Of a stretch of DNA of 64,000 nucleotides, positions 46 through 36,678 are shown in pieces. Within the stretch, counting starts at the first letter, position 1; every line of letters starts with the position of its first letter. The position numbers were made by a program, and so were the translations under genes. The DNA is from Gnetum montanum (Eukaryota > Plantae > Gnetophyta), in NCBI GenBank assembly GCA_015680685.1, contig MNCI01002706.1, positions 118,712 to 182,711 of the forward strand, written 5' to 3'. The notes beneath the pieces were generated by a model. The model was given only the letters and a program-made list of their open reading frames with translations, had not been told where the DNA came from and made no database searches.

Positions 46-802
46 TGATGAGATGCGATATCGCGGCCGCTGCAATATCGCATCCCCTGCGATATCGCGT
101 ACGCGATATCGCGTAGTTCCCTGCGATATCGCGTACACGATATCACGGTCCGCCGCTAAATCTATAAATAAGAGGCAGCACTCCCCTCATTTGAAAAGAT
201 AGACGTAAAGTAGCGAAGCTCTGGCAGATTGATCATCCCAAAGATAGAATATTTTCCATGTGCCCGCAGTAGGAGTCCCCCAAGTGAACNNNNNNNNNNN
301 NNNNNNNNNNNNNNNNNNNNNNNNNNNNNNNNNNNNNNNNNNNNNNNNNNNNNNNNNNNNNNNNNNNNNNNNNNNNNNNNNNNNNNNNNNNNNNNNNNNN
401 NNNNNNNNNNNNNNNNNNNNNNNNNNNNNNNNNNNNNNNNNNNNNNNNNNNNNNNNNNNNNNNNNNNNNNNNNNNNNNNNNNNNNNNNNNNNNNNNNNNN
501 NNNNNNNNNNNNNNNNNNNNNNNNNNNNNNNGACTTAGTGTTGTAGTTAGAGTTAGTTTTAGTCTCTCAACCCTTCACCCTTTAGCATAAGAGATAAATT
601 GTAAAAGACCAAAAAAATCATATACCTCAAACTTACTTAACCATACACCGTGACAACAACAAGTAAGTCTGGGAAGACAACGATTAATTAACCCCAAGTG
701 TTCCTTGCGGCGTTTAGGCATTTAGTTTGTGGAGTTCGACCGGATCGCGTGTGCTATGCTCGTTTCGTATGGTTGAGTGTAGGGGTACCTCGCCACTCAT
801 CA
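46..802 (+). mobile_element. 3' LTR of an Athila-like Ty3/gypsy element (internal region lies upstream of the window; N gap inside)
   Basis: Starts TGATGAG right after a PPT-like CATGGGGGTA and ends CTCATCA. The preceding 'AACTTGAGGACGAGTTTTCATTTA' matches the sequence before the 3' LTR at 60874-60909. TATAAATA at about 163. The U5 end resembles the LTRs at 52852-53712 and 60910-61877. Confidence 0.85.
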
Positions 803-1712
803 AAGATGAATCACACTTTTATTAATATTTTTATTGAGAGAAACTTTTTTAATAGTTTCTTGGAAAATATAAAAGAGATCATTTTCAACATATCCTAATG
901 TTTCTTAAAAATTTCAATAGAAAAACCATCAAAACCTAAAACTTTACCATGTGCTAAATTAAAGGCCATAAGCTTTGATTTTTTTTTTTGTTGTTGTAAT
1001 TTTTGTTTCAAGAATACTTCGATGCACTTTTGTTATAAGATGAGGAATGTTCTTATTATTTATATAAAATGATTTTCGTTTAGGTAACCCTTTCCTTTTA
1101 AAAATTTAAAAAATTCCTTGCAATGTTCATCTTCAATTTTTAGTTAATCCATGTGACTTTCAGTGAGAGCACTCTTAGCTTCAAAAGTATCCTAACATTG
1201 TTTAACATAATGAGCTTTAACCAAGGTTTTTTGAGTTTCAAAATTAGAGAGATTTTGGTCTTAAAAAAAATTACATTTGCTTTACAACTTCTACAAGATC
1301 TTTTTCAACTTGACACTTAGACTTAGTAAATTGCTTTCCAAACCATCTAGCATTGTTTTGATTCTACAAGTAGTTTGCTGACACTAGTTAATCTAACCAA
1401 TTTTACCAATAGACTTTTTTTATAGCATTCCTTAAAGATTTCAAAATACTTTTTCCACCGGGTCTTATGTTCTTATGTACATATTAGCATTCATACAAAA
1501 AAGCTCATACTTTTGGAAAGATGAAGAATTAATCCCAAAAGGAAAAATGCTAATAGAAAAACGATGTGATAAAAGTAACATCTCTGTGCACTTTTACTTT
1601 CATTGTAAGCTTCACTTTATTAACTTCACTATAAAATGAAATATAATATTTATCCTATAGATCTTATAATTCTTCAAACTTAATAAAGCATCAGTCAACC
1701 ATTTTCTTAAGT

Positions 1713-1983
1713 GGATATTTATACAAATATAATATAACGTCCGGTCAATAAATCATTTGAGTCGGATATTTATACAGACATAATGTAATGTCCAACAAAT
1801 CATTTGAGTCTAGTGACGGTTGCAATTTCAAAATCCGATCCGAAAGATCATTAGTCTGGAGTCATGATCGTTTTGTGCAGAAATTAGTTTCCATTTTAAG
1901 AAACAAAGTGAAGTCTCCAAATTCCATAACTGTGCAGAAATTAGTTTCCATTATAGAAAACAAAGTGAAGGCTCCAAATTCCA
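1713..1983. repeat. Two short tandem duplications upstream of TBL (about 50 bp x2, then 57 bp x2)
   Basis: GGATATTTATACA...AAATCATTTGAGTC occurs twice (1713-1810). TGTGCAGAAATTAGTTTCCATT...CCAAATTCCA occurs at 1874 and 1931. Confidence 0.85.
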
Positions 1984-2066
1984 AAATTTGGATTGCATCG
2001 GTTGCCAGCAGCAGCAGCAGGAGTGATAAAAATCTCAAAGAGCAAAAGCTATACCTAAACCTCGGT

Positions 2067-5000
2067 ATGACAGGCGGCAACAGCAGCAGCAGCATCAGAG
2101 GAAGAGCCAGATCCGAAAAACTTCTCATCAACAAATCCTACAAAATTGCATTGACATCTCTGCTCTGCGTGGCAGCCCTTTGGTTTGCATGGTCTGCAAC
2201 TGTATCGCTGTCTCCCTGGATCCTGAATTCCAACACAGCGTCATCATTTTCTTTCACAGGATCGTCCCACTGCAATTATTCCCATGGCAGATGGGAGTAT
2301 GATCCAAGCTTGGCTCCTAGATACGACAAAACTTGCCAGGAGATTTTCAAAGGTTGGAACTGCATCGCTAGCAACAAACCCAATGCCAAAGATATCTACA
2401 AATGGCGCTGGAGGCCTTGGGACTGCGACCTACCTCCACTTGATCCTCATTTGTTCTTCACTCTCTTCAGGAACATTAAAATCGGTACTTTAACTTGATC
2501 TCAACTGTAAAGTTGAAATGTGTAGCAGAAGCATTGAAAATTCAAAGCCACTGTAGAAACTGCTGCTATTTCGGATCTCTACTGCCAAGTTTGGATGCAG
2601 AATCTCTTGATTTAAAATACTCTTTGAGATACACTTTCTCTGGATTCCGTTAGTGTTACTGGCCTCAGCTTTGTAATATAAATGCCTTGTCTGAAAACGG
2701 TTTTTAAAGACTTTATGGCAATTTTTTTGGTTAATCTTTAATTCTGTGCAGGTTTTGTAGGGGATTCTTTGAATCGGAACATGTTTGTTGCGTTGGTGTG
2801 CACTCTGAGAAAAGTTTCTGAAGATGTGAAGAAGTGGCGTCCTGTTCGGGCTGACCGAGGGTTCACCTTTCTTAAGTACAACTTGACTGTGGCTTATCAT
2901 CGCACTAATCTGCTCGTGAAATACGGGCGGTATGTGAAGTCTCACTCAATTTTATTGGCATGGGCTACAAGCATTGAAATTTGAAAACGTAATATGTCAG
3001 TGCCAACCATGGATTCAGACTATAATACCATAACTCTAGTTCTCCTGCTTTAACTATGTTTTCTGACAGGATTTTATTTGGACATAATAAAAATTTACTT
3101 TCAATTTCACTTCCATTATCCCAGGGATTACACAGTGTTAAATATGTGAATTCGGTTGTAGCCAGGAATACAGACAATTTTTCGGTCACGTAGGGATGGT
3201 TGTCTTTAATTGAAAATAAACCTTAATTTTGACCAAGAGGCCAACCACGAATCATAATACTGTAACCCTAGATTATACGTTGAGCATAATTCTGTACAGG
3301 GCCCATCATATAACTTTAAATATTATTTCCTAAATTTTTCATCCTATTCAATCCTATGATTTGATTTTTTGAAAAGAGAAAAGATTCTCTCGGCCAAATT
3401 ATAAATATATAGTTAAACTAGCTTACCTGACATTCAAGAAAAGACCCAAGAACAATTGCACAAATCAAAACTTTACTCAATGCAATTGTCCTAAAGAAGA
3501 AAGTTCTAAAGGGCATGGAAATTTTTCTTTTCTATGATCCGTCTTGTCTATTTGTTTACCAAATCCCTTTGAAGAGGATATTTGAGCAAGGTTTCCTATT
3601 CATCTCAATAATGTTTAGCAATATCCAAATTTTTTTTCTTTGTTAAAAAAGTTTATCCTTCAATCTATTTCACTTCTTACTTGATGGAACCCGTCTTCTG
3701 TTAGTTTTTATCCTGATGTGGAATGCAAGTACCTCATCTAAGTAATCTATTTCTAAGGTTTTTAACTTAAAACTATTTCTGAGTAAATTTTTTTTCTATT
3801 GTGGATATCACTGGTATCATTCAAAACATTTGAACCAGATTTATTTTGATTTATTGAATGAATTACGTTTTCACAATGTATTTGTGGAAACAAATTGTCT
3901 TTCTCTCTTGGTTGTAGGAAAGGTAACTTTTAGCTAAAACTTGAGGTGTTCGTTGTTTTCCCAATATATGAATCAGCAAGACGGTTTATAAATAAATTCC
4001 ATTACATGTTTTGTTATTAAATAAACAAACTTACATTTTGGTTCATTTTTAAACATGGAGGAAATTAAAATAATGAAATTAAGTTGATTTGGCATGCAAT
4101 GCATATTTCCATCTTTGCAAATATTAAACATTTATTCAGATTATATGTATTGTAGATGGTCTGCTGGACCTGATAACGGACCTTTAGAAAGATTGGGGTA
4201 CAAAGAAGGCTTCAGGGTGGACGTTGATGTTCCAGATGTTACCTGGGCAGAGGCCCCAAACTATTATGATGTTCTCATTTTTAACACTGGTCACTGGTAA
4301 AGTACAGATACGTATTCTATTTTGTTTTCTGACATATGTCATGTATGACAAAATGATTAAATAGAATATCAATGGTGAAGTATGATTTCTTTACTTGAAG
4401 ATGCATTCACATATACAGCTGTTTTTAATTGCAAATTCTTTTAGCCATAGCAGATAGTGTGTTTGTATATAAAATATCTGCTCTTTCAGTTCTAAAATTG
4501 TACTTGAAATCTGAGTAATTTTGTTCACAAATAATAGTCTAGCAAATCAGAGTCTAATAGTGTATCCAAGCCTGATCTTTTAATAGTAAGGAAATTAATA
4601 GATTTGTTGAGTCTGCATCTGATATAACAATAAATTCATTTTAGTTTCAATTTCAATAAACATTTTCTGCCTGAAAAATAAATTTGTCATCTAGAGTCGT
4701 AGTCATACATATTAAATAGATTTCACCGACTTTCACATACCTTGCAGAGATTCTTTCTTTTAATTTTTTTTCTATCATGCAGCATATCCATCATTCAAAC
4801 TTTTGTAGAAATTTGAAACTAAATCATCATACCCAATGCTAATGCTATTGTTATAAAGTATAGGCGGAGTATGAAAGTAATAAACATTTTCTTTATGAAA
4901 GTTTCTTGGGGAAACCTAAAATTACTTGGCCTTGATTCTATAAAATATTACAAAATTTGTAATGCATATTTATATGGTTTTTGTATTGTAATTTCTTTTT

Positions 5001-6961
5001 GTTTTCAGGTGGTGGTCTCGTACAAAATTTGATCCAGTGAAGTCACCCATGTTATTTTTTAAAAAGGGTTTACCAATATTGCCTTCAATGCAACCTGAAG
5101 AGGGTTTAGACATAGCGCTCAAAAATATGGTCAGGCAGTCATTTCTCCTCAATATAAAAATTTTACAGTATGGAAAAATTGATGGCATGGTAGGCATAGT
5201 CGTAGATGCTAAGTCAGTAAATAGGTTAATTCTAAGGCATAGATACCATCTTTTTTATGATGCATATTTGACACTAGAGTAAATCTGGGTCTTCGGAGTT
5301 ACGATGACATAGCCAGAGCCCATATTGTATTTTCTGGCTTCTGTTTTTTATCGGTTATTTGGTATACACTTTTGGAGATTCTCTTGTTGAATATCCCTCA
5401 TTAAGTTCTCTTAGTGGCTTTGGAATTCATGTTAGACTGAATGATTAGAAAAAAAAAATGAATTGAAGTGCAACTTTCCCTTCAAACTCTCAATAGAAAT
5501 TCTTGCATATGTTGTCATACCTGTGGTCGTTGGATGAATAATGCAAAGGGTGGCTTTTGTTTGTTCGTTCGTTTGTGTTTTTTTTTTTTTTTTTCCTTTT
5601 TTTTCTTTTTTGCCGTCTCCTATCCTTTGTCGTTTGAATTGTTTAATTGAGGACCCACCTGGATTGCCTTTCCAAATCTTAAACTTTAGCCATGCTATGA
5701 GCCATCCATTGTAATATACAATGTTAATTGTTAAACATGCCTATGTTCTTTCTGTCGCAGATTCAATACGTTGAGAAAGTCACAACAAAGAAGACATTGA
5801 AGATTTTCCGGACACAGTCACCTAGACATTTTGAAGGTGGTGATTGGAATTCTGGAGGAAAATGTTCTAGGCCCAAACCTTTGGCATTGCAGGAGGTAAA
5901 TTTCTGTGTTATAAAACTATTCAAACAACTGTAGTCTAAGGCTTCATTTCGTTTCAATGGACGTAGTTTCATTTAGTTGAATTTTTGTTTGATAATCAGC
6001 CTTAAAGGAATTTTTGTCTGATAATCAAAATCATGCATGCAAGAACACAAGTTTGTATATAAAAATGTTTCAACTCATGTTTGTTGTTGATGACAATACA
6101 GATTAAAAGTTTTAAAAGAAAACTTTTTACACTAATGAATTGTTAGAGAATGAAGGCACATGATGGTAATTTAATGGTCTCAAGAGTGTGTTGATGAGGA
6201 TGATGTGGTTAATTTAAAAGAGAATCAAATATTTGCAATTCTGCTGTTTTTCCTTGCCAATGACATTTCAACTTTATCGGTACTGCTAAAATTCATGATC
6301 CAACTTTCATAGTGGGAACTCCACGGATAATGTTACAACAATGGTGAAATCATCTTGTGTTGGCTGTTGCTCATTTCAAAAACTCGTTTTTACAGTTTAA
6401 TATCTAAATTTTTAATTTTCAAGTTTATCCATTAGATCATAAAAAGAATGCATGTACTTTACAATTAATGAAGCCTTTGACTTCTGGATGTGTTGAAAGT
6501 TTAGAGGTTCATAAACCAATATTGCATTTTTAGGTTTGCTTGTTTCAATTTTTTTGAAGGCTTGAATTCACTGTAACATTGCAATTAATTTATTCTTGGA
6601 AGTATTATCTGTACCAGCTTGTCAAATAAGAATTGGAGAATAAATTTCAGTTACCAAATTCACTCCAAAAATGTATTCTTTCACCTTTCAGGTTTATCAC
6701 TTGTTTACAACTGGGAAAAATGGTACAAATGTTGAGGGGCGCCTCGCAAATTCCCATTTGGTGAATGCCGTTAGAAATTCAAGCTTTTATATGTTAGATA
6801 TAACTGCTATGTCTGAATTTAGAGCCGATGCTCACCCTTCAAAGTGGGGAGGGAAGAAGCATGAAGATTGCATGCACTGGTGTTTGCCGGGATTAACTGA
6901 TTACTGGAATGACTTGTTAATGGTTATATTACTTGAACACACAACAAAAAAAAAATTATAA
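2067..6961 (+). CDS. TBL13: Trichome birefringence-like protein (TBL13-like; PMR5N + PC-esterase O-acetyltransferase), about 420 aa
   Basis: Exons 2067-2484, 2752-2929, 4156-4296, 5009-5129, 5761-5895, 6692-6961. All introns are GT-AG and the exons total 1263 nt in frame. N-terminal TM segment, Cys-rich [26 protein letters not shown] (GDS), [41 protein letters not shown] (DxxH). An in-frame ATG at 1788 is possible but less likely. Confidence 0.93.
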
Positions 6962-10247: not shown

Positions 10248-10699
10248 TAGTTATATATTTATAATCTGGCCTAGAAAATCTTCTTCATTGATAAGTAATA
10301 AGGTATTTCAATCAAATATTTCATGACTTCTAGACAAAGAACAAGATTTATTTATCAAATTTTTCATGATCATGGGATCAAGAATAAAATATTTGCATTA
10401 TCTATTGTATATTCTCATTCTCAGCCAAATTTGTTCTTTTTTGTAGACTCTCTTAGGCGAAAAAAAGAAACAAACAAACAAACAAACAAACAAACAAATT
10501 CAGCTAAGAGTGAGGTGAGAACATATGATAGTTGATGCAAATATTTTGTTCTTGATCTCATGATCATGAAAATTTTGATAAACAAATCTTGTTTTTCGTC
10601 CATAAGTCATAAAATATTTGATTCAAATACCTTATTACTTATCAACAAAGAAGATTCTCTTGGCCAAATCATAACTATATATTATAAATATATAACTAG
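10248..10699. mobile_element. Foldback/MITE-like element with about 160-bp inverted arms
   Basis: 10248-10406 is the reverse complement of 10527-10699 (e.g. GATAAGTAATAAGGTATTTCAATCAAATATTT / AAATATTTGATTCAAATACCTTATTACTTATC). The loop holds an (AAAC)n tract. Confidence 0.8.
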
Positions 10700-14647: not shown

Positions 14648-17600
14648 TCAAAATTTTATTAGACCCTGATCTTTCAAACAAGATAGCACTTCTGCAAGAC
14701 CTTCACGTAGAGGTCGAGGCTTGTAACCCAACTCCATCTGTGCTTTATCGCATTTGTAGGCCCATTGGTGCTTGAGAACCCTTATTGTCTGCATTTCATA
14801 CAAATATTATTCGTATTTTATCCAGTGACAAGAATATGACATCAATATATTAACGTAGTAAACCACCATTTTTTGTTTAATTTTTTGCTAGAAAACAAGG
14901 AAAAGAAACATACCGGGTAACTAACAAGAGGAAGCTTTCCGGTGAGCCTAGCCCAAAATACTGAAAGCCAGCCATATATCTCAAGAACCCAGAGAGGGAT
15001 ATGAAAAGATGGGGAGGAAGTTGCAGTCAAAGTAGCTGCAAGATCAAAAATGGTAACAAATGAAGCATTTTCTCCAGTGAGAAGATACCTTTCACCAACT
15101 TGGCCAATTGTTATTGCAGCAACATGAGCAGATGCAACATCATCAACATGAGAAAAGGACATCTTGTCATGTCCATAGCCCATGTAGCTAGGCAGGCGAC
15201 CATTAAAACGTTCAATCAGCTGCATTGTGTTTCAAAATAAAAAATCAGCACTCTTGGGCAATAACGTTCCAATTTTGTCACATAAAGGAAGGAGGGCAGT
15301 TGAGATCATCCAACTGACAGATCACTCATCAAATTACCAAACATGCAATGCAGGAACGTTTGTGCCTAGTTTGATCCCTGCAACATTCATATAACCTTAT
15401 TACGATTTTATCATAATGTTCTATACATGCATAGTATGTCCTTCATTTCACTTCTGCATAATGCCTGGCTAATTTATTGTATTCACAGTTAGACTTTCCA
15501 GGCAGGCTCACTTGGCTTTTCCTGCTACATCAACGCATGGATCACTGCATTAGCGTTTTCTGCACCCGTTGTAGCCTTTTTTTTATTTTCCTTTAACAGT
15601 GTAGTTAGACAAATAATTATAAATCAAGTTAGACAAATAATTATAAATCAAACACATAGAAAATCAGACAGTGTAGTTAGACAAATAATTCCAAATCAAA
15701 CACAATAGAAAATCAGAGAGAGTCAGTATGGAACGAGTAACTAAAAAAATCATGATAAGAGTTCTATTTATTTCAAAATGGAAGTTTGATCATTTTCACC
15801 TCTGGTTTTGTGGTAGCATTTATCTATGCTTTTTTATTTTTCACAACAAAACAGAATCTAAGAACCAGAAAAAAAAGAGTCTTAGGGGCCCTGTGTCGCC
15901 GGTGGGGAGGGGCCCTTAGGGGTGAGTCGGCAAACGATGGCAGGTGCAATGCAGACGTTCAAGCTCATGGAGCAGGTCCAAGGTGTTGCGATGCTCCTCG
16001 ATGTCCATGAAGTTTGCCGCCTGTTGGATACCCTGCATAGCGGACTCCCGCCTGCTCCGGTCCGTCGGTGAATCCTCCGCATCCGGATGGAAACGTGCCA
16101 AGGTTCGCCGGCTATGTCTGTGGAGCTCCCCCAGGAGCTCTCACAGCTGATGCCCAAGATGNNNNNNNNNNNNNNNNNNNNNNNNNNNNNNNNNNNNNNN
16201 NNNNNNNNNNNNNNNNNNNNNNNNNNNNNNNNNNNNNNNNNNNNNNNNNNNNNNNNNNNNNNNNNNNNNNAGCACTGTGCTCGTGTGCCCGATCAAGCTA
16301 TCTTTGCCTCTGCTCCTCCTCCTCCTGTAAGCGTTCATGCTCCGCCCTCTCCACCTCCTCTTGAGCTCTACAAGCCACATCCTCCTGCCTCAACTCCTCC
16401 CGCACCTGGGCCCGGATCTTGTCAATGAGCCAGACCCAAGCAACCTCTACCATTAGCTCATGTTGTCTCATCTGCTCCTGTTTCCGCTCGTGGAACTGGG
16501 CTTCCAGGTCAGCCTGAGATTGGGCAAGGGCCTCGTTCCACTTGGCCTCCCACTCCCGCCGCGCCGCCTCCCGCGCAGCGGTTGCGGCTTGCTGTTCGGC
16601 CTATTGCAGCTCTTCAACCCAGTTTGAGCGGTCGTTGGGGGGGTCTGGCAAGGGGGAAGCCATCCTGATAAGACTACAAGCTTGTACTTAAAATACGCTA
16701 CAGTCTTACTTTAACTTACCATTAGGTCATGCATAGGATTGCAACCCTGATGCTTTAATGTATTTCATACTTGTAAAAAGTGTTGAGTGCAATTTAGCTT
16801 ACGACATGCATTCATAAAATAAAAGCAAATAAATATAACAAAAAATATCTCTAATCCATAATACTCGTGCACTTTTCTGAATAACACCACCCTTTACCAT
16901 GGTAATTTGAAAACACATATCTGGATTCCCAAATTTTGTGATACATTGATTGCATGTAATTTATTAGTTTAGTAATAGTAATTCATGAAACAAATAAATA
17001 AAGAAAAACAAAACAGCTGCATAACTGGTATACGCACATGTAATGAATATTAGAGGAACTTGACAAATAAATGCTGAAAAGTGCCATTCATATCTAGTCT
17101 ACATTGCAGAGTGAATTACCAGTTTTGCAACAATATTTCCTGTTGTAAGTTTTCCAGCTCCATATATCACCCCTGGATAAAGCATAACAATTGGGAAGCC
17201 ATCAACAGCTGCTTGGCAAGCAATCTCATCTGCCAAAGCTTTGGATTTTTCATATTCAGTGCAAAAGAATTTTTTTTGATGGATCTGTCAAATAGCAAAA
17301 GTAGAAGTTACTGATATTTGCTTGGTTCTCAAATTCTAACACCAAGTAAGCATCCATTCTTGCTGAAATATACTGTCAAGCATATAAAGAATAGGATATC
17401 TAGAGAATTTGGTTTTGGAGCAGAAAATATGAATCATAAATTTTCAAAAAAAGGACAAATACAGAACAGTTTTGAATTGTATTTTCAGAAAAACAACAAT
17501 CAACAGTTGCTTATCATTTACGAGCAAACATCTGTTTTTAAACATTCCATGAAAGTCACTCTGGCTATAGATGGTTTGTAATTTTATCTACTCTGAGCCA

Positions 17601-20600: not shown

Positions 20601-23600
20601 ATTGAGGCAAGATGGTCTAAATGGAGACAAGCTAGTGGTGTTTTATATGATAAAAGAATACCAATAAGACTAAAAGGGAAATTTTACAAAACAGCAATCA
20701 GGTTTGCTATCTTATATGGTGTTGATGTTAGGTAGTACAAATGAGGCATGAAAAATAAATCAGTGTGGTAAAAATGCAAATGCTTTGATGGATGTTGAAT
20801 GTTACCAAAAATGATAAACTACATGATACAAACATTAGGGGAAGACTTGGAGTGGGTTTTATTTCAAATAAGCTACAATAATGGCAACTTAGATAATTTG
20901 AACATGTACAAAGAAGATTAGACAATAAGCTTATAAAAAAGCTTGCTACATCAATGTTTTAAGAAAACTTCTAAAAGGAAGACCAAAAAAGACAAGGAAA
21001 AATACAGTTGAAGATGATTTTAAGAAACTGCAAATAAACAAAGATCTAGCTCTTCATAGAGGCAAATGGCAAAAAAGAACTCATATAGTTGACCTCATTT
21101 TGTTGGGACAAGGGTAGGATGATGATGATGATGATAGTTAGAAGGGCAAGAGGGCTTATTGGTTTTGGTATAGAGCCAATATCACAGCGTAACTAGCAAC
21201 ATAAATTATGAATATTCTTGCAGATAGCTCTAAGGTTGAAGAGCACCATCAGGAAGAAATATTACCATACAGCCATACTTTAAGCCCTCTAAAGGTTCTC
21301 AAGATCCTAGACCAATACCAAGAAACAATGTATTGTACCAACAACTATTTGTTTTGAAGAATGAATGACAAGTTTGTACTAAGTGATAATGGTTTGCTAT
21401 GTGGGAGGCTATTGAAACCCAAAATTTTTGTTTGTAGATTAGTTGCTGCAATTGTTGATTTTCCAAGCTCTTTACATAGATCCAAGATTTGAAAACATGT
21501 TAGAAAACATTGCTCTTTCAAAGAGACTTCAATATACTTAGAATCACTGAGTTAGTTGGCTCAAGTTAGAACCCAGCAAATTATGAAGAATAACAAACAA
21601 TCTACTAGTTTACTTTTTCTTCCAAAAAAAACAACCTAATGAAGATGATCAAAGCTACATAACTAACCAAAGGGAAAGAGAAAGGCAAGGAAGATTCAAA
21701 GGGAGATGAAGATTTAATTATCAAAATAGAGATCAAGAAACAAACTCAGAAGAAAATATTAGTCACAATACAAGAGCAAAAGGAAGAGGTTCAGCTAGAG
21801 GAAGAAGCAAATGGAATCAATTTGGAAGACATCTTCATATGAAGTTCTATACAACAGAATTCCTAACCTGAGTCATATAAAAATATCTGGATATCAATCC
21901 TATGTAAAGACCCCAAAACAATTCATTGACAAACTTGAAGACAAAAAAAAACACATCTTTGTTGGTTATGATTCTCACAGTTGATACAGGTGTGATGAGA
22001 CAGTTTGATACAAGTGATTTTTTCAAACAATAAGAGAAATCAGATGCATATCAAAGTTCAAAACCATGGGTTCAAAGAGACCATTATTGCACTCAAATGT
22101 TAGACACACAATTTTTAAAAACAACTACAAGATCTCACAATATTACAAATATGGCATATTCAGCAGTCTCAAATAAACCAACCAATGTCAATGAAGCCAT
22201 GAAATTAAAAACCTTGAAAGAAGCCATGGACAACGAGTACAATGCCATCCTAAGAATTAACACATAGGAATTAGTGGACAAACCAAAAGACAAGAAGGTT
22301 ATTGATTGCAAATGGCTGAATAAAACAAAGTACAATGAGAAAGGAGAAGTCACAGCACATAAAGCAAGACTTCAGGCAAGAGGATTCAAACAAAAGAAAC
22401 ACATTGACTATGAAAAAATCTTTGCACCAATGGCCAGATTTGAAATCATCAAGCTCATTCTCTCCATAGCAACACATAAAGATCTAAAGGTTCACCAAAT
22501 AGATATCAACTCAGCATTTCTAAACAGATACATCAAAGAAGACATAGACATCTACCCACCTGAAGGTTACATTATCAAAGGAAAAGGGAACAAGGTGTGC
22601 AAACTTAACAAAACTCTAATACCACGTGAAGGAACTTGAAGCAGAGAAAAAATTACTTGGTTATCTTGACTTCACAATGAATCAGCTATATTTTTAGAAA
22701 GCTTAAGAATTTCTCTACAATTTGGAAAAAGGAAGTACTACAAAAGATATCCAGAAGCTGAGGTTATGTTATGTTCCTTCCAGCTTATCAAAAATCACAG
22801 TAATTTTGGTAGTGTAACTCTGAAAGATGATAACTCAAAACTACTTGTGTTTATGATGCTAAAATTTTAACTGAACCTTCCTACATATATTAGCTTTCAA
22901 ATAAATCTAAAATCACATAAAATCAGTGTGAGGTGAGGGAGAGATGATCCAATCATTGACCATCATTCATTCTGGTAAAATTTTGGGACTCAAAAAATCT
23001 TCCAAATTTCAGAGCAAATATCTCCCAAATTGTGAGAGATATTGAGATGAAGTTTTAACTGAACACAACCACCTGTTCTAGCTTTCAAATAAATCTAGAA
23101 TCATTGAAAAATATAGCAAAATAACTGAGTATGATTGAAATAGTGAATGCCCCTAATTCTTACGATTCAACTTTCAAAATTGAGTAAATAATGATAAATG
23201 ATGTTGATGAATATTGATAAATTGATAATGAACTAATGAAATTCGTGTTGAAATCGTTTTGATGATTCCTTGATACACAAATTTCCAAAAGATGCCTTGT
23301 ATATGTGTGTGTGAGACAAGTGAGGCAAAGTTTATTAATATGATATAGCCCCAATGTCAAAATAACCCTAAGAGTAACACACACACACTATTAATATGAT
23401 ATAGCCCCAATGTCAAAATAACCCTAAGAGTAACACACACACACACTATTAATATGATATAGCCCTAATGTCAAAATAACCCTAAATGGCCGACTGGCAA
23501 CAAATGGAGCAACAACAGCAACAGCAACAGGAGGAGCAACAGGAGCCGCAGCAGGTGCAGGAACCAGAGCAACCACAAGCTCAACAATAGGAGCAGGTGC

Positions 23601-26600
23601 AGGTCCTCGAACAGCCAGCCAACGGGGGGCAACACCCTCATGGAGAACATGCCTTGGCCGGCGATNCAGCGATGTGGGGGGCCGGTACCTGGAGGCAGCA
23701 TCGAGGCCCACTCCAGGGCTAAGGGCACCCTGCGCCTCCAGGTTACCCAACCCCCTCTCGAGGGGGTCTGCACAATGTAGCAAAGCCTTATCAGCCACTT
23801 TGTCTCACGGGGTGCATGTCCGCGACTGGACCTCATCCGACGTTGGGCCCAGGAGCAGTGGCAGGTGGGGGAAATCGGGGTCCGCAGCCTGTCCACGGAC
23901 CTCCTTTTGTTTATTTTTCCCTCCCATCAGACCAGGGATTCAGTTTTGCTGGGAGGCCCGTGGTTTTACGGAGCGAGGGGTTTGGCTTTGACCCCATGGT
24001 GTCCCGGGGCCCATCGTGAGGCAGACCTGTTTACCAGAGCCCCGATTTGGATGCAGGTTTCCGGGATCCCCTGGGAACTCTGGAATCTGGGTTTCCTGCA
24101 GAAAATCGCAGGATTCTTCGGCAAATTCATCGCCTTTGACCGGGTAACGCAGTCAATGGAACACATGGGCTTCGCCTGTTTCTGCGTTTGGCACGGGTTG
24201 GTGGAGAAGGACCTCATTCAAGAGGTCGTCTTGGAACTCCCCGAGGGGGGCGAGGAAAGAAAAACTCTAGGTTGAGTTTGAAAACTTGGAGGCTACAACA
24301 GGACCCAAACGCAATCCTGAGACCCAGGGAAGCAACACAACCGGTTGCGCGCACTGCGGAAAACCCGGCCATCAAGAAGCGGCCTATCGGGTGCAGGGGT
24401 TGAGGCTGCAAAGACCAAGGGCCCAGGCCAGACAACTGTTTGAGGGAGGCGCATGGGTCNNNNNNNNNNNNNNNNNNNNNNNNNNNNNNNNNNNNNNNNN
24501 NNNNNNNNNNNNNNNNNNNNNNNNNNNNNNNNNNNNNNNNNNNNNNNNNNNNNNNNNNNNNNNNNNNNNNNNNNNNNNNNNNNNNNNNNNNNNNNNNNNN
24601 NNNNNNNNNNNNNNNNNNNNNNNNNNNNNNNNNNNNNNNNNNNNNNNNNNNNNNNNNNNNNNNNNNNNNNNNNNNNNNNNNNNNNNNNNNNNNNNNNNNN
24701 NNNNNNNNNNNNNNNNNNNNNNNNNNNNNNNNNNNNNNNNNNNNNNNNNNNNNNNNNNNNNNNNNNNNNNNNNNNNNNNNNNNNNNNNNNNNNNNNNNNN
24801 NNNNNNNNNNNNNNNNNNNNNNNNNNNNNNNNNNNNNNNNNNNNNNNNNNNNNNNNNNNNNNNNNNNNNNNNNNNNNNNNNNNNNNNNNNNNNNNNNNNN
24901 NNNNNNNNNNNNNNNAGGCGAATGGGTTAATGTGGTGCAGGGGAGCTCCAAACCCTGCAGGCACCAGGGGACAGAAACCACGCCCAAAGAACCTGGATGC
25001 AGCCCGGTGATGCGAAGCGAAGAAGGCCGATCCGGCCGGCCGAACGAGACTCAGGCCAGAGACAAGAAGACCCAACGGAACATCAACATGGGGCTCCAAC
25101 AGACCCTCCGGGAGGTCTACCAACACCGCACCCCTAGTCACACATGAAGTTGTTCAGTTGGAATTGTAGGGGACAGGGTACCCCCTATAAAAGAAATACC
25201 CTACGCAGAATTGTTCGTGATGAAGATTGTGATATTGTTTGTCTCCAGGAGACCAAGCTACAGGCAACGGAGTCGCACTTTCTCCACTGGGAAGGTTGGA
25301 CCACCCACATGCACCCCTGTTTGGGCCGAGCCGGCGGACTCGCTATTTTGGCCCACTACACCATGAATCTCATGGATGCATTGCAGTGGGCCATCACTGT
25401 CCAGCTCCCCTCACAAGGGGTCTGGTTGACTAATTTTTCCGAGGCGCAGAACTGGGAGCAACGATTACACGAGTTGACCCGAGTGGCGCCGCTGATTCCA
25501 AACCATCGATCGTGGATAGTGGTGGGGGACTTCAACCAACGCCTCCACCCTTGGGAGAAATCTGGGGGGCCTACCCTCCCTCCACAGGGGGTGCATGAAT
25601 TCTAGACTTTTCTGGCAACCTTCTCCCTGGTGGACCTACCCATTGAGAACTGTCATTTCACGTGGAGTAATCGGAGGAAAGGCCTGGACCACACCTTTTT
25701 CCGAGGCCGAGAAATCTTGATTACAGAATCTTCAATTGCCAACTGTTTGGGGGCCTAGATCGATGGAGAGGTCATTCTGCCTTCCACCCACGGCCTACAA
25801 GACGCAGAAATGTTCTTTGATGGGCTCGTTCCTGGAACCAAGAGCCGACAAGTACCCAGATCTTCCCTGCCCCGCCTATGGGCCCAGGGCGCAAATCTGG
25901 TGGACAAATTTTTTGTCCAGTCTGGGAACAGTTCCAAGCTACAGGGCCTACACTTCGCTTTTCTGCGTTGTCTCAAGTTGGGTCGCCAGGTCAACCTCCC
26001 CCGCTTTTTTAAGGAGGCCCTTCTGCTCAAGNNNNNNNNNNNNNNNNNNNNNNNNNNNNNNNNNNNNNNNNNNNNNNNNNNNNNNNNNNNNNNNNNNNNN
26101 NNNNNNNNNNNNNNNNNNNNNNNNNNNNNNNNNNNNNNNNNNNNNNNNNNNNNNNNNNNNNNNNNNNNNNNNNNNNNNNNNNNNNNNNNNNNNNNNNNNN
26201 NNNNNNNNNNNNNNNNNNNNNNNNNNNNNNNNNNNNNNNNNNNNNNNNNNNNNNNNNNNNNNNNNNNNNNNNNNNNNNNNNNNNNNNNNNNNNNNNNNNN
26301 NNNNNNNNNNNNNNNNNNNNNNNNNNNNNNNNNNNNNNNNNNNNNNNNNNNNNNNNNNNNNNNNNNNNNNNNNNNNNNNNNNNNNNNNNNNNNNNNNNNN
26401 NNNNNNNNNNNNNNNNNNNNNNNNNNNNGGAACTGGAATGAGGAGCTTCGGCAGGCCACGCAGAGGGCAGTGCACGAGGCTCAGGAGGCGGAGAGAAAGG
26501 AGTGGGAAGCCAAATGGAATGAAGCCCTCACGTAGGCCCAGGCCGACCTAGAAGCCCAATTCTCTGAGCGCGAGCAGGAGCGAGTGAGGCAGTAGGACCT

Positions 26601-29600
26601 CAGAGCCGAGGCTGCTAGGGCTCGCCTAATTGACAAAATCCAGGCCCAAGTGCAGGAAGAGTTGATCCAAGAGGAAGTGGCCCAGAGACAATGTGAACAA
26701 GCGGAACGGGCGGAGCAGGAGCGGCTTCAAGAGGAGGAGGTCCAGAGACAACGGCAACTTGACTGAGCCCACGAGCACAACACCTGACAGTGGCTAAGAG
26801 GGGGGCGATGCCCGTACCTCATTCTTGGCATCAGCTGTGAAAGCTCCTAGGTTGAGCTCAGACGACATATCCGCCAAACCTCGACACGCTTCCATCCGGA
26901 TGCAAGAGCTTCGCGGGCAGACAAGAGCCGACCATGCAAGGTATCCAACAGGCGGCCAGTTTCATGGACACGGAGGACCACTGGAACACTCTGGATATCC
27001 TCCATGAATTGGAGCGCCCCGATTGCGCCTGCCGACGAACCCATAAGGGGTTGTCGAGCTCGGGTGGTGGGGGACGCTTGCCCCCCTCTACCAGGTCGAT
27101 GCCCCCTCCATCCGGATGCAAGAGCTTCGCGGGCAGACAAGAGCCGACCATGCAAGGTATCCAACAGGCGGCCAATTTCATGGACACCGAGGACCACTGG
27201 AACACTCTGGATATCCTCCATGAACTGGAGCGCCCTGATTGTGCCTGCCGACGAACCCATAAGGGGTTGTCGAGCTCGGGTGGTGGGGGACGCTTGCCCC
27301 CCTCTACTAGGTCGGTGCCCCCCCCCCCNNNNNNNNNNNNNNNNNNNNNNNNNNNNNNNNNNCCCCCCCCCCCCCCCCCCCCCTTTCTGTTGTCTTTGAT
27401 GGGGAATGGGGGGGGTGCCCCCCTCTCTCTTTTTCGCTGTGGGGGGGTGTCCCACCCCCCTCCCCCGCTATTTCCCAGGGTTGGCTCCAGGGGCAGTGTT
27501 TGTTTTATTTTTGTCTTGGGAACTGTTTTGATTAATTTGGGAGTCCTTCCCTACCATGGGGGGGCCATTCCTGATGGCCCACCATTTGTAATCTCTTGTN
27601 CACCAATCTGAAAATTTCCTATATTTTATTAAAATAAACACACACACACATGGATTGGAGCCAAAATAACATTACAACTACCCACCAATCTGAAAATTTC
27701 CTATATTTTATTGAAATAAACTACTATTATATAATAAAAGCAAAAATTATTATCTTCTACTCTAAAAAACCAACAATTCATCCTTAAGAATGGAAGGCAA
27801 TCTTCATTGTCAAACATAGTTATGGTTAGGGAGTTATAGCCATTCAAAGTTTTTGTAAAACACACCAATTTTTTTAAAAAAAAAGAAGGAAATTTAAATG
27901 TAAAAAGGTTGATAATGTTTAAATTTTCAAATTTCATTATCCAGGGTATCTAAGAATCAAAACTTTAACCTTCAGATTAGCAACCCAAAATTTTTTAAAC
28001 ATCCTCTAGCTAGCCAACTAGTCAACTTGCCAATTGCATTAAGATTAACAACACCTAAATATATATTTTTAAAATTTTTGAATTTAACATATATATATAT
28101 ATACACACACATCCTTTCATACCCAATCTCCACATTAATAAAGCTCCTTTTCATTTCTTTTTACATTTTCCCTATTACATTCATTACATATCATGTTGAA
28201 TGATGTATTTTTGACATTTGCCTGACATCTAGGAACAGGATGTCATAGTTTGAGTAGTTGTCTTTTGATGAATATCATTGTTGATTATTTGATGAAGAAT
28301 TTTTTGTTGAATGGATATCAAATCAATGAATTTTAAAATTTCTAAATTATTCCGCAAGTGTTTGACGTTGTGCTATCTTTACCATAGATAGGTGAAACAT
28401 AACCAATAGGTTTACTTTAGAGGCATGAATCAATTGCTTATACTACCTGTATAATGTGTAGACTACTAAACAACCATTTGATAAAATGCTTTGTTGTGGG
28501 TTGAACTTTATTTAAGGGTATCCTCTAATATTATTGATCACTATCAAGAGCTCTTTATTATCATAAATTCCAGTAGATTAAGAATGGATACAAATAACGA
28601 AAGAGGAATGTGTTGAACAAAGTGAACGTTTTCTGTTGCCTTGGGCACAGAATTGCATCCCAATTACCGTAAATCTTAAGACTAGGGAGTTTCATTTGAC
28701 AAGCAGGTATGTTCTGAACAAACAGGAAGATGAGTTAACTAAAGTCGTCTGGTAGTCTTCCTTTTCAGTGTTGTTTGAACCATGCAGGAAACCCCCCTTA
28801 TCATGGATTCTAGGATTTCAAGGTAGGAGGGGCAAATGATGCCAGGCTGTTAGTTATTTGGGAAAATGGAAAACCATGAACAAGAAATAAATTCAAGTTA
28901 AAACTTTCCATCATACATCAGGGCTAAGTGGTGTGCAGAGTTACTCAGGGTCATGATCTTATTTCTAGACAATGTGTTGGAAAGACTGAGTAAATTCCTG
29001 ATTTTGTGGACTAAGTAAATTCCTGATTTTGTGGGATTAATTGCAGTTTTTTGTAGAGTTTGTTTTCCCTGATTTATAGCTTCCATTTTTATTGCTTCTG
29101 ATTTCTAGGAGATCAGTTTTCTTTTTTAGTTTGTTTCCTGAAATACAGAATAAGGCTGGTCTATAAATCCTTGCATGCAATCCTTCATAAACTTCAATAA
29201 AGAGAATATTTCATTTCATCTCTTTGTTCATGGTATTAGAGTCAAGTTAAATGGCCGAAAAAAATTCTTCTTCCAAATCTTTGATAGATAAACAAAGTTT
29301 ATCTATAGCCTCAGTATTGAGCAATCCCAACCTGCTCAAGGAGGCTGACACATCATCAAAGACTCCCATAGCCTCAGTTGCACATAGAGGTAATCTAAGT
29401 ACTTCATGTTTTACACATTGCCATGTAAATGATAAGTGGACTGTTGACACAGGTGCTTTAGATCACATGTTTGGAAACAAGAGTTTATTCTCAGAATTAA
29501 AGGAGTGTCATGACGACATTAACATCACTATAACTGATGGTACTATGTCAAGAGTAGTAGGTTGTGGGTCAATTGATATTTCTAGGATGAATTTAAGATC

Positions 29601-32600
29601 TATTTACTATGTTCCGAAGTTAAAGTATAACCTCCTCTCTACCAACAAATTGTTAAAAGATCAAAATTGTGTAGTAACCTTTTTCCCTTCTCTTTGTGTG
29701 TTCCGGGCCCTATCTTAGGGGAGGATGATTGGCAGTGCTTTGGAGAAACATGGTCTCTACATTCTCAATGGTGCTGGTTCTCCTTCAAAAATTAAATCTC
29801 ATGAAAACGTCTCCCTTTCAACCTCATCTAGTTTAGAAATAATGCTTTGGCACAGACGCCTTGGTCACCCTAGTTTTGTTTATCTCAAATCTTTGTATCC
29901 AACTTTGTTTGTCAATAAAAATCCTTCAGATTTCCAGTGTGAAAATTGTATTGGTGCAAAACAAACTAGAAAAAATTATCCTTCTCATACATATCAAGTG
30001 TTAAAGCCATTTCATCTTATACATACTGACATACAGGGTCTCGCCCGTCAATCCACTCTCACAGGCTCTAAGTGGTTTATCATGTTTATTGATGATCATA
30101 CAAGGGTGTGTTGGGTTTATCTCATGAGAGAAAAATCAAAAACTGAATCCATTGTTAAACAGTTTCACAAACATATCTTAAATGTTTTCCAAACCAATAT
30201 CCAAAGTCTGAGAACTGGCAATGGTAGAGAGTATTTCACAAATGACCTGACACAATACCTAAATGATAATGGAGTGTTTCATCAGAGTTCTTGTACCTAC
30301 ACCCCTCAACAGAATGGAGTGGTAGAGAGGAAAAATAGACATTTACTAGAGGTAGCCCAAGCTATTATGTTCACTAGTCATGTTCCAAATTCTTTTTGGG
30401 GAGAAGCAGCATTAACTGCAGCCTATCTTATAAATAGAACGCCATCCAAAACTCTAAATCTTCGAACTCCTCTCAGTTGTCTACTTGATACCAATCCTCA
30501 TGTTCATATTCTTAACTCTCTTTTTCCTATAGTGTTTGGTTGCATTGCATATGTCTATAATCATCACCCACACAAAAGAGTAAACTTGATCCCAAATCCT
30601 TTAAGTGTGTCTTTACTGGCTACTCTTCAACTCAAAAGGGATATAGATGCTTTCACACCACCCCCCCACCTTTCCAGAAAATTCTTTGTCTCTTATGATG
30701 TAACTTTTTTGGAAGATCAAATGTTTTATCCCAATAGTTCTCTTNCTTGTTGTAAATCTTGAACGGGATCTTTACCAAATGGATGTAAAGAATGCTTTTT
30801 TGAATGGAAATTTGGAGGAGGAAGTGTTTATGAAGATGCCACCAGGATTTGAGATGGGAAGCAACAAAGTGTGCAAGCTTAAGAAGTCTTTGTATGGTTT
30901 GAAACAAAAGGTTACAAATAATGATTCCCCAGTTGACCGTGAGTAGTATCAACATCTAGTAGGAAAACTAATCTACCTTTCACTTACTAGACTTGACATT
31001 GCCTACAGTGTGAGTGTGATCAATCAATTTATGCGTTCACCTACAAATTGACATCTAGAGGCAGCCAATCATGTACTGAGATATCTAAAGGGCTCTCCTG
31101 GCAAGGGACTCTTGTTCAAGAAAGGTGAATCTCAAGAGGTGGAAGGCTTTGCTAATGTAGATTGGGCTGGATCAATGGAAGATAGCAAATCCACAACTAG
31201 ATACTGTGTGAAATCATGGGGAAATCTTGTGATATGGAGTAAGAAACAATCAATTGTAGCAAGAAGCAGCACTGAAGCAAAGTACCAGGTGATTGCTCAA
31301 GGAGTGTGCGAGCTTATTTGGATTGAGAAACTTCTAAAGGAACTAAAAATTTCATTCTTAGGTCCTATGAAGCTCTACAGTGACAATAAATTAGCAATAA
31401 GCATTGTTCACAACCTAGTTCAACATGATCAAATAAAGCATGTTAGAACAGATAGAAGCTTTATCAAGCATGAGATTGACTCAGGAGCAATTAGCCTAGC
31501 TTACATTCCTACCAAGGATCAAGAGGTTGATATCCTCACGAAAGCATTATCAAAACCAGGTTTTGAGTCTTTAGTTTGCAAGCTAGGAATGATAGATATC
31601 TATTCTCCAGCTTGAGGGGGAGTGTTGGAAAGACTAAGTAAATTCCCGATTTTGTGGACTGAGTAAATTCCTGATTTTGTGGGATTAACTGCAGTTTTTT
31701 GTGGAGTTTGTTTTCCCTGATTTATAGCTTCCATTTTTATTGTTTCTGATTTCTAGAAGATTGGTTTTCTTTTTTAGTTTGTTTCCTGAAATACGGAATA
31801 AGGCTGGTCTATAAATCCTTGCATGCAATCTTTCATAAACTTCAATAAAGAGAACTATTTCATTTCATCTCTTTGTTCACAATGTTTCAACATTCTTGCA
31901 AGATACCCAATGCGTACAAAATTATCCATGGCAATTATCACCCACATGACAAAATTTCCTGTTTCTGTAGTGGTTTTGACTTTTTGTTGTTGGTTGTTTG
32001 GTTTTTGTTCTTTCTAAAATATATACGGTAGCAAACAGTCTTTAACTCTTCCACTCACCCTGTCATATCCGTACAGTATCTAATATAACCATCTTCTTCC
32101 AAAAATGACAAGTCTCTAAAATAAAACTGTAATTCTACTGTTGATATAATTGTTAAAGGTTTGATAATAATCTATCACATTCATCTAACACAACACCAAA
32201 AATTTTGTTCATAAATAAAATAAAATCTGTAGTATTAGAAAAAAAACACATAATTTCAATTACAGCCAACAGAAAACACTTGCAATAATAATTTGCAGAT
32301 CTTCTTCTGTGGCTTGACTATCACCTAAATATAATGAAAGAAGAATAAAATTGGCTACGTGTTTACATCATGACTAGTAAATAGGGCATGTTAATTGTGC
32401 TGACAGCTGATATGTTAAAATATGCACAATTTGGTATGAATCTCCAACCTGGCTTTCATCTGCAACATATCCATCTGTTGGTCCAATTGCGAAAAATGAT
32501 GAAGTGTAAACAAGTCTTTGTATCGTAGATACCCTCTTCAAAACTTCTATTACATTTTTTAAGCCAGTAACATTAACCTGGTGAATGTTGATGCAAGTTA

Positions 32601-35600
32601 CAACATAGATGCATTATTAGCCTTTCTAAAACAGATAAAAGTAAACCAATTTATTCAAAATAAACTAAATGAAGCATTGAGACAACGTTTCCATAAAAAC
32701 ATCAAACATTGTCCGCAAAAGCCAAACAAGCTCCAAAACAAACGATAGGCATTCATAAATAGGAAATTACCTGACACTTGTTATAACTAGCATTTTATAT
32801 AAAACCCCAACGACATTGCCATTCTTGAAAGCAGAAATTGTGATGCTCATATGTTTGCAGAAGTTTAACCTTGAACAGGAAAACCATGCTATCAACGTCA
32901 ACATTCACAAATTACATTGAAAGTTACATTGTATTCTGATGGTTTTACTTGACAATTATCTATTAACTATATTCCAGCTTCCAATTTTGTTATTAACAAA
33001 ATCTTATTTTTACTTGTTTAAAAGAAATATTTGTGGCAGTCTTAATTAGTGTATCTCTGTAGCAATACTAGCCACTTAATAACATGGCCTAAAAGTTAAC
33101 ATTTGCAATGGAATGGTTGGAGTGTTCATGCATACAAGGCATGAATCTGGGAGTTAAAGTGCCTTTAATGCCATATTATGTATTATGGCAGTTAATTTAT
33201 GAAGAACAGATGGTTGGTTGGTTTGTAACATTAGATTAGATCCATTATTCATTGTAGCAGGGTGTTCATTTTATTTTATCAATTAAGTATTTTATATATT
33301 TGTTGCTATTCCATTTATATTAAGAGCAGAACAGTGCATAGCATTCATTAGGAGTTCAGTTGACCAACCGTTGCTCAATGACATGTATCTTGAAAATGTT
33401 ATTATCGTTACATATAATGAAGCCAAATCTTTATCATATCTCTGATTTTTTTCTGTTAAAGTTTGTAACTGCCTCCCCTGATTATGATGATTTCATTTCA
33501 TTGTAACTTATTGTACTAATTGATTAAGGAACTAGGTGTGGTTGGTATTCTTGACTTTGGAAAATGACTACTTAGATTGCCCATGCTTTTGGCTGCTGTA
33601 GGCTATTTAAAGGAGTGGACAGAGATGTGGGATGTACAAAACACAATTTTTAATTAGAAATCAGATTAGCATCCTATTCCATCGATGTTTCCCTTCAAAT
33701 TTAAGGAGTTTACCATGTAAGTCGGTTGTCTTGCCTTTTTTTTATTGATTCTTCACTTGATTTTTTTTTCAGTTCCGGTAATTGTGCTACAGTCAGCTCG
33801 AACAGTTACCCATAATTTGTTTAAGAAAGAAAGAAAACTACTGAAATTCTTCTTCTTATCTTATATATTCCATTAGTTGCCCCAACTAAATTGATAGTTG
33901 TCTTTGTTTAAAGACAATTTTAACCCAGACTCCTTCAACTCATAATTGATTTTTAGTTATGACTTATTAAAGTTTGATCTTTGATAGGTATTTAATTGTT
34001 AGAGAGGTGGAACTATTCTTAATAATGTTTCTGTTTTCAAAAATCAGTCATTTTGTTGTTTTATTAGTTATTCAGGTCCTGTCACCCACTCAAAATTGCA
34101 ATGTTGTAAAATACATCATTTCTCTCAGGGTCCTTCAACATTTTACTAGGTGTCAACCAGTCTTCCTACATTACTCACCTAGGTGTTTTCTATCAGTTTG
34201 TATCATTTCCTCCAGTTTTGAACTAACAGTATGGTTTCTCCCACTCTGAAAGAGCAAGCTTGTTCCATGAAATTTCTGCTCTGAAATTTCAACTCAATTA
34301 TTTATATTTCACATTTTCAGGACGACATATTAGATTCAGAACAAAGAAACTACGAGAGGACCAAAAGAGCAGCAGAAAATTCAATCCCAGTTTTTAGTAA
34401 TATACGTCTCCCGGTGCTGGTACTAAATTGATATATTTAACAAATATTTTTTCAGAGAAACCTGGCAAAATTTTTGAAAAAAGTGATGTATGGATATGAC
34501 CATCAAGTTTTCCACAGCGACCATTCATTGCAATGGCAAAAAGCCTGCCATAAAATAACTTGGCAAACCCGTCAGGTGGAAAATCAGTTCCACAGAGTTG
34601 AACTTAAAGATATACAATTATACATTCATAAAAACGATAGACACCAAATTATGAAATCGATCTGCAAAACATTCAATAGAAAATCAATATCGTGAGAACT
34701 GGATCAATGCTCTATTGGTAAGTATGAATTCTGCACATATTGCCAGCCTTTTTGCTTGGCCTTATGGGAACATGAGATAATGTAATTGATCACTACTATG
34801 GAGGATGGAATCTTAGGCATATACAAGACATTAATTATGCTTTGTTAGGGAAGACTGCTTGACAGCTTTGTATCTTAGATAGATTGTAGGTTAAGGTGAT
34901 GAAAACAATGTACTTGTATGGTAGTTTTCAATTTGTTAATACTCCTAATATTACTAATCCCTCCCCAATTTAGAGAGAGTTTTAGTTTACAAGACATTGG
35001 TTTTGTCAACGTTTGCACAATTAGTAGTAAAACTGGTGTTATAGATTAGAATAATCCACAAAGAATGCTTAACACGCTTTATATCCTATGGAAAGAATGC
35101 AATATCCAGTAAACATTTGGAATCACATGTTTACTCCTCACATTTGTCTCTTTGCTAGTAAGATGCTTCATGAAAAATTACTCACTGGTCAATATTCTCC
35201 CCAAAACATTACAGAGGATCCAGGTTATGACTTATGTTCTTCAATAACAGAAAGTGCTAATCATCTTTTTATAAACTACCCATTTATTCAAGAAATTTAG
35301 AATGAGTTCAAGGTAGTAATCATAGGTCGCTACTTGCAGATAATTCTGGGAATGATTTTTTGTTAGTCTGCCAACACCAGTATACAGGATAACATGGTAA
35401 GGCATTGACAGCACTTGGATAGTTTATTTGGTATGAATCATGGCATGAACAATTTTCAGAGAGTTTTCCAACAAAGGTCATAGGCCAGTGTGGGTTGGTG
35501 TTTGGGTGCTTTGGTTCTTTGGAAGGATGCTGCAAAGTTTAGAAGGAATAATAACTAGAACAATATTGGTTAATAGTTTACATATTGTTTTGTTTGTTCT

Positions 35601-36555: not shown

Positions 36556-36678
36556 TTCCTCCCAAGTGCAAATGTTTGTCAGAATAACACCAGGAGGCCT
36601 CTCATTTGGCTATCTTTATTTTTCAAGGGAGGGACATCCCTTGTTGTAGCGTTTAATCTTGATACATAATTTTATTTC

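Follow-up and report, generated by a model that had tools for sequence, protein, structure and literature searches.

Plant L1-clade LINEs, such as Celine of poplar (PMC11288735) and the elements surveyed in PMC5203782, are described in the accessible parts of these sources as having an ORF1 with DUF4283 and CCHC domains and an ORF2 that begins with an APE endonuclease. The combination of DUF4283 and APE is the signature of plant L1 elements (PMC11288735, PMC5203782). Their copies are often 5′-truncated and carry neither LTRs nor TIRs, and domains such as RRM and RNase H have been gained within ORF1 and ORF2 (PMC5203782). Additional genes of unclear role are a feature of plant LTR elements, as in the Athila ORF with Transposase_32 (PF20167/PF03078), where a conserved extra gene lies 3′ of the replication genes on the sense strand (accessible text of PMC11728184 and PMC7264820). 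HAL1, or half-L1, is an L1 derivative that lacks the reverse transcriptase (RT) and retains a selected ORF, namely ORF1p only (as far as the accessible part of PMC5753468 goes). In bdelloid rotifers, one type of accessory gene (GDSL esterase, DEDDy, coiled coil) occurs across unrelated classes of retroelements, and movement between these classes has been proposed to proceed via RT template switches (accessible text of PMC5408684).

The locus described here shares traits with each of these systems and differs from each of them in others. The window, by which we mean the whole 64-kb stretch of DNA that was analyzed, contains a large and a small copy of an element; in the large copy, a selected ORF follows the 5′ part of a plant L1 (Table 1). 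This third ORF encodes an accessory domain, a coiled coil and a J-like end. Unlike plant L1-clade LINEs, the element has this ORF downstream, and RT, zf-RVT, poly(A) and target site duplication (TSD) were not seen at either copy. Unlike the additional ORFs of plant LTR elements, the third ORF stands in a non-LTR setting and terminates with a J-like part that carries an HPD motif, and its accessory fragment has no Pfam match. The element is not a HAL1: it retains part of an endonuclease and a third selected ORF, and its loss of RT looks copy-specific. The rotifer ORFs differ in being animal-hosted and in having other domains; the word DnaJ does not occur in the accessible text of PMC5408684 or of PMC6338049. 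It is also absent from the main text and from one of the two supplements of PMC5203782, the other of which may list rare domains. In the titles, opening lines of abstracts and passages that the literature search covered, with Repbase and most subscription papers outside it, we found no LINE with a separate J-domain gene.

Table 1. Features of the two element copies and their setting (positions within the window)
Feature	Position	Strand	Remarks
Large copy, whole	23487-27630	+	~4.1 kb; L1 ORF1 and APE endonuclease directly 5′ of coiled-coil/J-like ORF
Plant L1 ORF1, large copy	23487..25143	+	Gln-rich start; DUF4283 ~23820-24176 (PF14111, E 5e-25); broken; 456-N gap
Weak CCHC knuckle in ORF1	~24343-24375	+	PF00098, E 0.06, under cut-off
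ORF2 5′ part, APE endonuclease	25144..25690	+	PF03372, E 6.8e-17; without last catalytic motifs RxDR and SDH
Likely copy-specific deletion junction, endonuclease/accessory ORF	25690..25722	.	In frame
Accessory domain fragment	25691..26031	+	114 codons; no Pfam match; Transposase_32/Athila-ORF1-type resemblance by eye
Assembly gap in accessory-coiled-coil ORF	26032..26428	.	397 N
Coiled-coil part, large copy	26431..26800	+	In-frame stops present
J-like domain, large copy	26806..27046	+	PY-ILGI...HPD at 26893; 10-base loop deletion; stop 27044-27046; Pfam DnaJ E 0.013-0.02
216-bp tandem duplication	26891..27322	+	C-terminal half of J and start of 3′ region
Putative 3′ UTR, large copy	27263..27630	+	Poly-C/G runs, T-rich after; merges into AT-rich host DNA; clear poly(A) absent
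Small copy	15885..16666	-	GC-rich island (0.61) within AT-rich DNA
Small copy, Pro-rich linker and E/Q/R-rich coiled-coil part	16271..16666	-	In-frame ATG at 16663 opens linker; 2 in-frame stops
Assembly gap, small copy	16162..16270	.	109 N
J-like domain, small copy	15916..16161	-	HPD at 16089-16081; reading frame shifted once near 16130; ORF stop 15918-15916; Pfam DnaJ E 0.05, under cut-off
Post-stop bases, small copy	15885..15915	-	~30 GC-rich bases, AT-rich DNA beyond; unlike 3′ region of large copy
Host gene exon, NAD-dependent epimerase/dehydrogenase	14845..15231	-	PF01370; translations

The sole partner of the small copy in a self-BLAST of the window is 26484-27249 in the large copy, to which its segments 16276-16571 and 15939-16159 align by blastn with about 71-78% identity. 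The small copy thus covers the coiled-coil and J-like part only, in agreement with the initial annotation, which had described it as keeping just the 3′ portion. Features of a plant L1 are confined to the large copy, where ORF1 carries DUF4283 and ORF2 opens with an APE endonuclease; the endonuclease shares 29% identity with a full ORF2 across 206 columns. DUF4283, endonuclease and the accessory-J ORF lie on one strand and have a similar GC content of 0.53-0.61, as opposed to 0.28-0.32 in the flanks. GC3 is also similar across the L1 and the accessory-J parts (0.59-0.67). This link of the accessory-J ORF to a LINE, in one copy, is what the window contributes; the initial annotation of the small copy mentions neither the plant L1 ORF1 and endonuclease upstream of the ORF nor the likely internal deletion described below.

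No 5′ UTR is visible upstream of the first ATG of the large copy. A 58-bp tandem repeat with an AC run (2.7 copies, 23333-23485) ends exactly at this ATG. At the 3′ edge, an AT-rich sequence of about 38 bases occurs twice, 82 bases apart, within 27601-27720, and may represent host DNA or the end of the element. The large copy is preceded, at a distance of 0.9 kb, by an isolated copia RT fragment (22268-22636, plus strand, RVT_2, E 8e-35).

Translations revealed further exons of the host gene near 17110-17290 and at 36250-36609. From the positions of these exons and of the one at 14845..15231, it follows that both copies are intronic, the small copy in sense and the large copy in antisense orientation relative to the host gene. 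This gene, which we take to be farnesol-dehydrogenase-like, spans 14845-36609 on the minus strand, more than 20 kb, with introns filled with transposable elements. The same long intron contains a 2.9-kb copia-type element (28974-31879, plus strand) with 258-bp LTRs of 95% identity, TG...CA ends and a 5-bp target duplication, CAATG; protease and integrase remnants were recognized in it, and an RT was not found. Elsewhere in the window, nested and decayed Ty3/gypsy copies occupy 38700-61900 in both orientations (67-86% pairwise identity, Retrotrans_gag at 40637-41047), an exon of a PMR5N/TBL-type plant gene lies at 1761-2495 (plus strand, PF14416, E 5e-12), and an imperfect, MITE-like palindrome of 430 bp (77%) lies at 10252-10681.

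The coiled-coil/J-like ORF evolved under strong purifying selection. This had been proposed from conserved blocks in which the two copies differ at silent sites only, and all of these blocks were recovered. A ten-residue block (small copy 16555, large copy 26500) contains five differences, QADLEAQF three and LIDKI two, all of them silent. A twelve-residue block contains three silent differences when compared with the second unit of the 216-bp tandem duplication at 27150; against the first unit, one residue differs. The attached concern that the choice of conserved blocks biases the estimate was not borne out by a comparison of all ungapped alignable parts of the two copies, which comprise 173 codon pairs, or 167 after removal of six with a stop codon. 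Over these 167 codons, pS is 0.68 and pN is 0.16, corresponding to a dN/dS of about 0.10 (bootstrap 95% interval 0-0.19, the lower bound of 0 reflecting saturation), far from the value near 1 that the initial annotation had set against its own claim. Differences at codon positions 1, 2 and 3 number 34, 31 and 80. Neither a ratio this low nor this excess at third positions was reached in any of 5,000 neutral simulations with matched transition and transversion counts (neutral mean ratio 0.71; P < 1/5000). When the coiled-coil block was read in its two remaining sense frames, the ratios were 1.43 and 1.57, and the antisense frames gave 0.98, 0.28 and 1.89, the frame with 0.28 being the one that shares third positions.

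Changes private to the large copy follow another pattern. Relative to most matching contigs, 39 of the 40 private changes listed (of 424) fall in the ORF, with 13 at each codon position; 14 of these are synonymous, 21 alter a residue and four lie within stop codons. Deamination-type changes account for 28 of the 40. The even spread over codon positions indicates neutral decay after insertion. Together with the low dN/dS between the copies, it shows that constraint acted in active lineages and that the genomic copies decayed neutrally later. Since synonymous sites are near saturation, the two copies represent two old, long-separated subfamilies, and the ORF is old in the lineage. By itself, this dN/dS would be ordinary for any element that was once active; the value of the finding lies in the architecture in which the selected ORF is found.

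The element belongs to a large family. A query with 25100-27100 drew 5,246, 2,503, 6,098 and 4,495 contigs in four of four runs, which carry four organism labels and come from three studies, and some part of 24916-26031 was present in 20 of the 24 runs listed. With such copy numbers, a captured single-copy host DnaJ gene can be ruled out. Summed contig depth in X1, which does not equal copy number, was 472-4,528 over the endonuclease and accessory part (bins 25301-26037) and 768-6,637 over the coiled-coil and J-like part (bins 26440-27042). The strong 3′ excess in depth that would be expected with 3 kb of RT in between was not seen. Contigs that enter the gap of the large copy from the left keep the frame. 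On the right side of this gap, contig ends are colinear with the first 12 codons of the small copy in three runs (9, 7 and 15 contigs, by eye). In contigs, too, the J loop has the longer form of the small copy, from which we conclude that the 10-base loop deletion is private to the large copy. At the level of RNA, a 581-base query against about 2% of a single RNA run recovered four reads, all of them partial and less than 95% alike, and no RNA run was among those listed as containing part of 24916-26031.

The initial annotation had also claimed that the ORF spreads in a 3′-anchored manner. The first half of this claim stands, in that the small copy is 5′-truncated. Since family contig ends are colinear with its first 12 codons, the small copy begins inside a longer ORF; its Pro-rich linker was matched to these contig ends by eye. 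For the same reason, its ATG at 16663 is unsupported as a natural ORF start. The second half of the claim, a shared 3′ end, was not recovered. The ORF stops at the same aligned codon in both copies (15918 and 27044/27260), and past it their similarity (score 25, P 0.65) did not exceed that of shuffled sequence (mean 26), the stop being followed by about 30 GC-rich bases in the small copy as against about 350 bases in the large copy. No significant TSD and no clear poly(A) were found at either copy, as the initial annotation had stated for the small copy. A 9-base near-repeat at 15876/16700 was considered as a TSD and set aside, being within chance for the search area by our estimate. LTRs or TIRs bounding the copies, which had been named as an observation that would speak against this mode of spread, were not found in the window self-BLAST, and a comparison of the ends returned only low-complexity matches of 9-14 bases. 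For an L1, 3′-anchored spread is plausible.

We then considered the nature of the third ORF. The HPD motif is present in both copies, and hence in both subfamilies, although synonymous sites between them are saturated. It sits between predicted helices 2-13 and 21-40. Across the PY-ILGI start, the basic helix II and FHPD, the alignment with the J-domains of Sec63, DnaJ and Hsp40 is ungapped. A PDB sequence search gave 37 weak matches (E 0.11-2), of which 23 were J proteins (two of them presumably so) and 14 were CD1d chains; the J half of the small copy gave no match in such a search. Applied to the frameshifted halves, the Pfam DnaJ model (PF00226) gave 14-16 bits (E 0.013-0.05), short of its cut-off of 27.8. 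For a fold model of the J fragment that lacks helix I (pLDDT 67, pTM 0.29), Foldseek gave no match and VIA gave none at Z ≥ 5. Broader searches were negative in their respective ranges: a 69-position J profile returned nothing at E ≤ 0.001 from 1.84 billion representative proteins, the coiled-coil/J alignment had no homologue among 3,542 candidates of 71-275 aa, the accessory fragment had none among 53 candidates of 201-2000 aa, and of the pattern matches in two metagenome scans, 70 and 595 in number, none was confirmed. The 114-residue accessory fragment, truncated by the junction on one side and by the gap on the other, matched no Pfam family, Transposase_32 (PF20167) included, and its single-sequence fold model reached a pLDDT of 42. 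By eye, its motif pattern resembles that of the Transposase_32/Athila-type accessory proteins. The third ORF likely ends in a chaperone-recruiting J-domain.

No RT was found in or near the large copy. The endonuclease search returned two generic full-length L1 ORF2s from 1,736 candidates. In two canonical ORF2s, RT occupies residues 505-761. The alignment of the large-copy endonuclease to two full ORF2s stops at 25671-25710, ahead of RxDR and SDH. At least 12 X5 contigs (agreement 0.89), among the 24 loose-end rows listed of about 1,370, depart from the window sequence at 25690 into R-I-D-R (translated by eye), the canonical endonuclease motif. None of the 32 contig pieces listed, of about 18,400, spans 25690-25722. 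The only other stretch left uncrossed by these 32 pieces is 26860-26925, which corresponds to the known private 10-base deletion of the large copy. With random placement, the junction was left uncrossed in 1.7% of trials (0.017), and some uncovered point occurred in 12%. The break in the endonuclease, the divergence of related contigs at this point and the lack of crossing pieces argue for an internal deletion, and the large copy likely lost the C-terminus of its endonuclease and the RT, together with the beginning of the third ORF, at ~25690.

We also considered whether the RT could be concealed in the 397-N gap and rejected this option, since an RT requires at least 1.4 kb of extra sequence. 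The colinear stretch at the gap of the small copy measures 115 letters in this copy and 41 in the large copy, so gap sizes are wrong by only about 75 bases. The 397-N gap is crossed by one X1 contig, with a shorter side of 40, and one X5 contig, with a side of 30, just below the minimum of 31. A decayed L1 3′ fragment with a piece of zf-RVT (E 3e-4, ~35110-35295) lies at 35100-35500 on the plus strand; since it is AT-rich (GC 0.35), it likely derives from another family than the GC-rich element.

The junction may be read in other ways. The family as a whole could be a non-autonomous L1 derivative, in which ORF1 is followed by a fused ORF of about 630 aa (truncated endonuclease, accessory domain, coiled coil and J) and RT is borrowed in trans, as in a HAL1 with more cargo. 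The absence of RT from the copy in the window, the similar depth on either side of the junction and the compact length of 4.1 kb would suit such a design, as would the preserved frame at 25690, which is however expected by chance in one of three cases. This model offers no obvious use for an endonuclease deprived of the final catalytic motifs, and it fits poorly with the 32 listed pieces, none of which crosses the junction, and with the related contigs that run into an intact endonuclease motif there. We regard it as improbable. Alternatively, the contigs with an intact endonuclease may be L1s without an extra ORF, and the large copy a chance chimera between the 5′ half of an ordinary L1 and a separate poly(A) retroposon that originated from an LTR-type accessory gene and was mobilized in trans, the two having been joined once, either through template switching or through a nested insertion combined with a deletion. 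That the link was seen once and that the junction looks private are both consistent with such an event. The two parts, however, lie on one strand with no intervening host DNA and agree in GC, GC3 and depth, and the remainder of the L1 is not found downstream, where the only RT-end fragment is the zf-RVT piece of presumably different origin. We regard a chimera of this kind as equally improbable. The element is likely an autonomous L1, as judged from its domain content, and its reading as an L1 lineage whose third ORF is of the LTR-accessory type and ends in an Hsp70-recruiting J-domain has, in our estimate, an even chance of being correct. Among the contigs listed, none displays RT beside the accessory-J ORF, and the link between L1 and this ORF comes from one copy.

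What the third protein does is a separate question, for which an anti-silencing role is the main rival. The selected protein might act against silencing or on chromatin, by turning Hsp70 toward a repressor complex or the loading of Argonaute. Alternatively, the HPD domain might be no more than J-like and fail to engage Hsp70. The low J scores and the lack of a fold match for the fragment without helix I leave room for the second option, and accessory ORFs of plant LTR elements have been proposed as silencing modulators (PMC11728184) or chaperones (PMC7264820) in the accessible text of these papers. The gapless agreement of PY-ILGI, basic helix II and FHPD with the J-domains of Sec63, DnaJ and Hsp40, and the retention of HPD in both subfamilies while synonymous sites became saturated, are more easily explained by a genuine J-domain. 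We consider these other functions unlikely, if less so than the alternative structures discussed above.

For the L1 lineage with a third ORF, the following mechanism may be envisioned. The RNA of the element would encode, as a third protein, the accessory domain, the Pro linker, the coiled coil and probably a J-domain with its HPD motif. Either the accessory domain or the coiled coil could tether this protein to the RNP of the element, where the HPD loop would recruit or stimulate host Hsp70 for folding or activation, that is, maturation, of ORF2p. Similar themes are known from viruses, with no sequence relation implied: polyomavirus T-antigen J-domains engage Hsp70 for their targets, and Hsp40/Hsc70 act on the RT of hepadnaviruses, so in both, a J-domain links a mobile element to the host Hsp70 that it recruits or requires. 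New copies would then insert by target-primed reverse transcription and would often be 5′-truncated; if the element spread in this way, the missing 5′ end of the small copy would be accounted for. We infer the RT of intact copies, this mode of insertion, the recruitment of Hsp70 and its target. The small copy is a decayed, 5′-truncated member of a high-copy family of plant retroelements, the intact form of which is likely an L1-clade LINE with a third gene, a description that, taken as a whole, we hold about as probable as not. More tentatively, a plant L1 lineage may have acquired an accessory gene of the LTR type, combined it with a J-domain and kept it as a third ORF under selection across several related species, thereby acquiring its own Hsp70 co-chaperone.

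If these assignments are true, a LINE with its own J-domain gene would represent a new LINE design, and an accessory gene would have crossed from LTR-type to non-LTR elements. The interaction between HPD and Hsp70 would provide a biochemical handle on the role of accessory ORFs in plant retrotransposons. Whether chaperone recruitment aids the maturation of RT or counters silencing would become a testable question.
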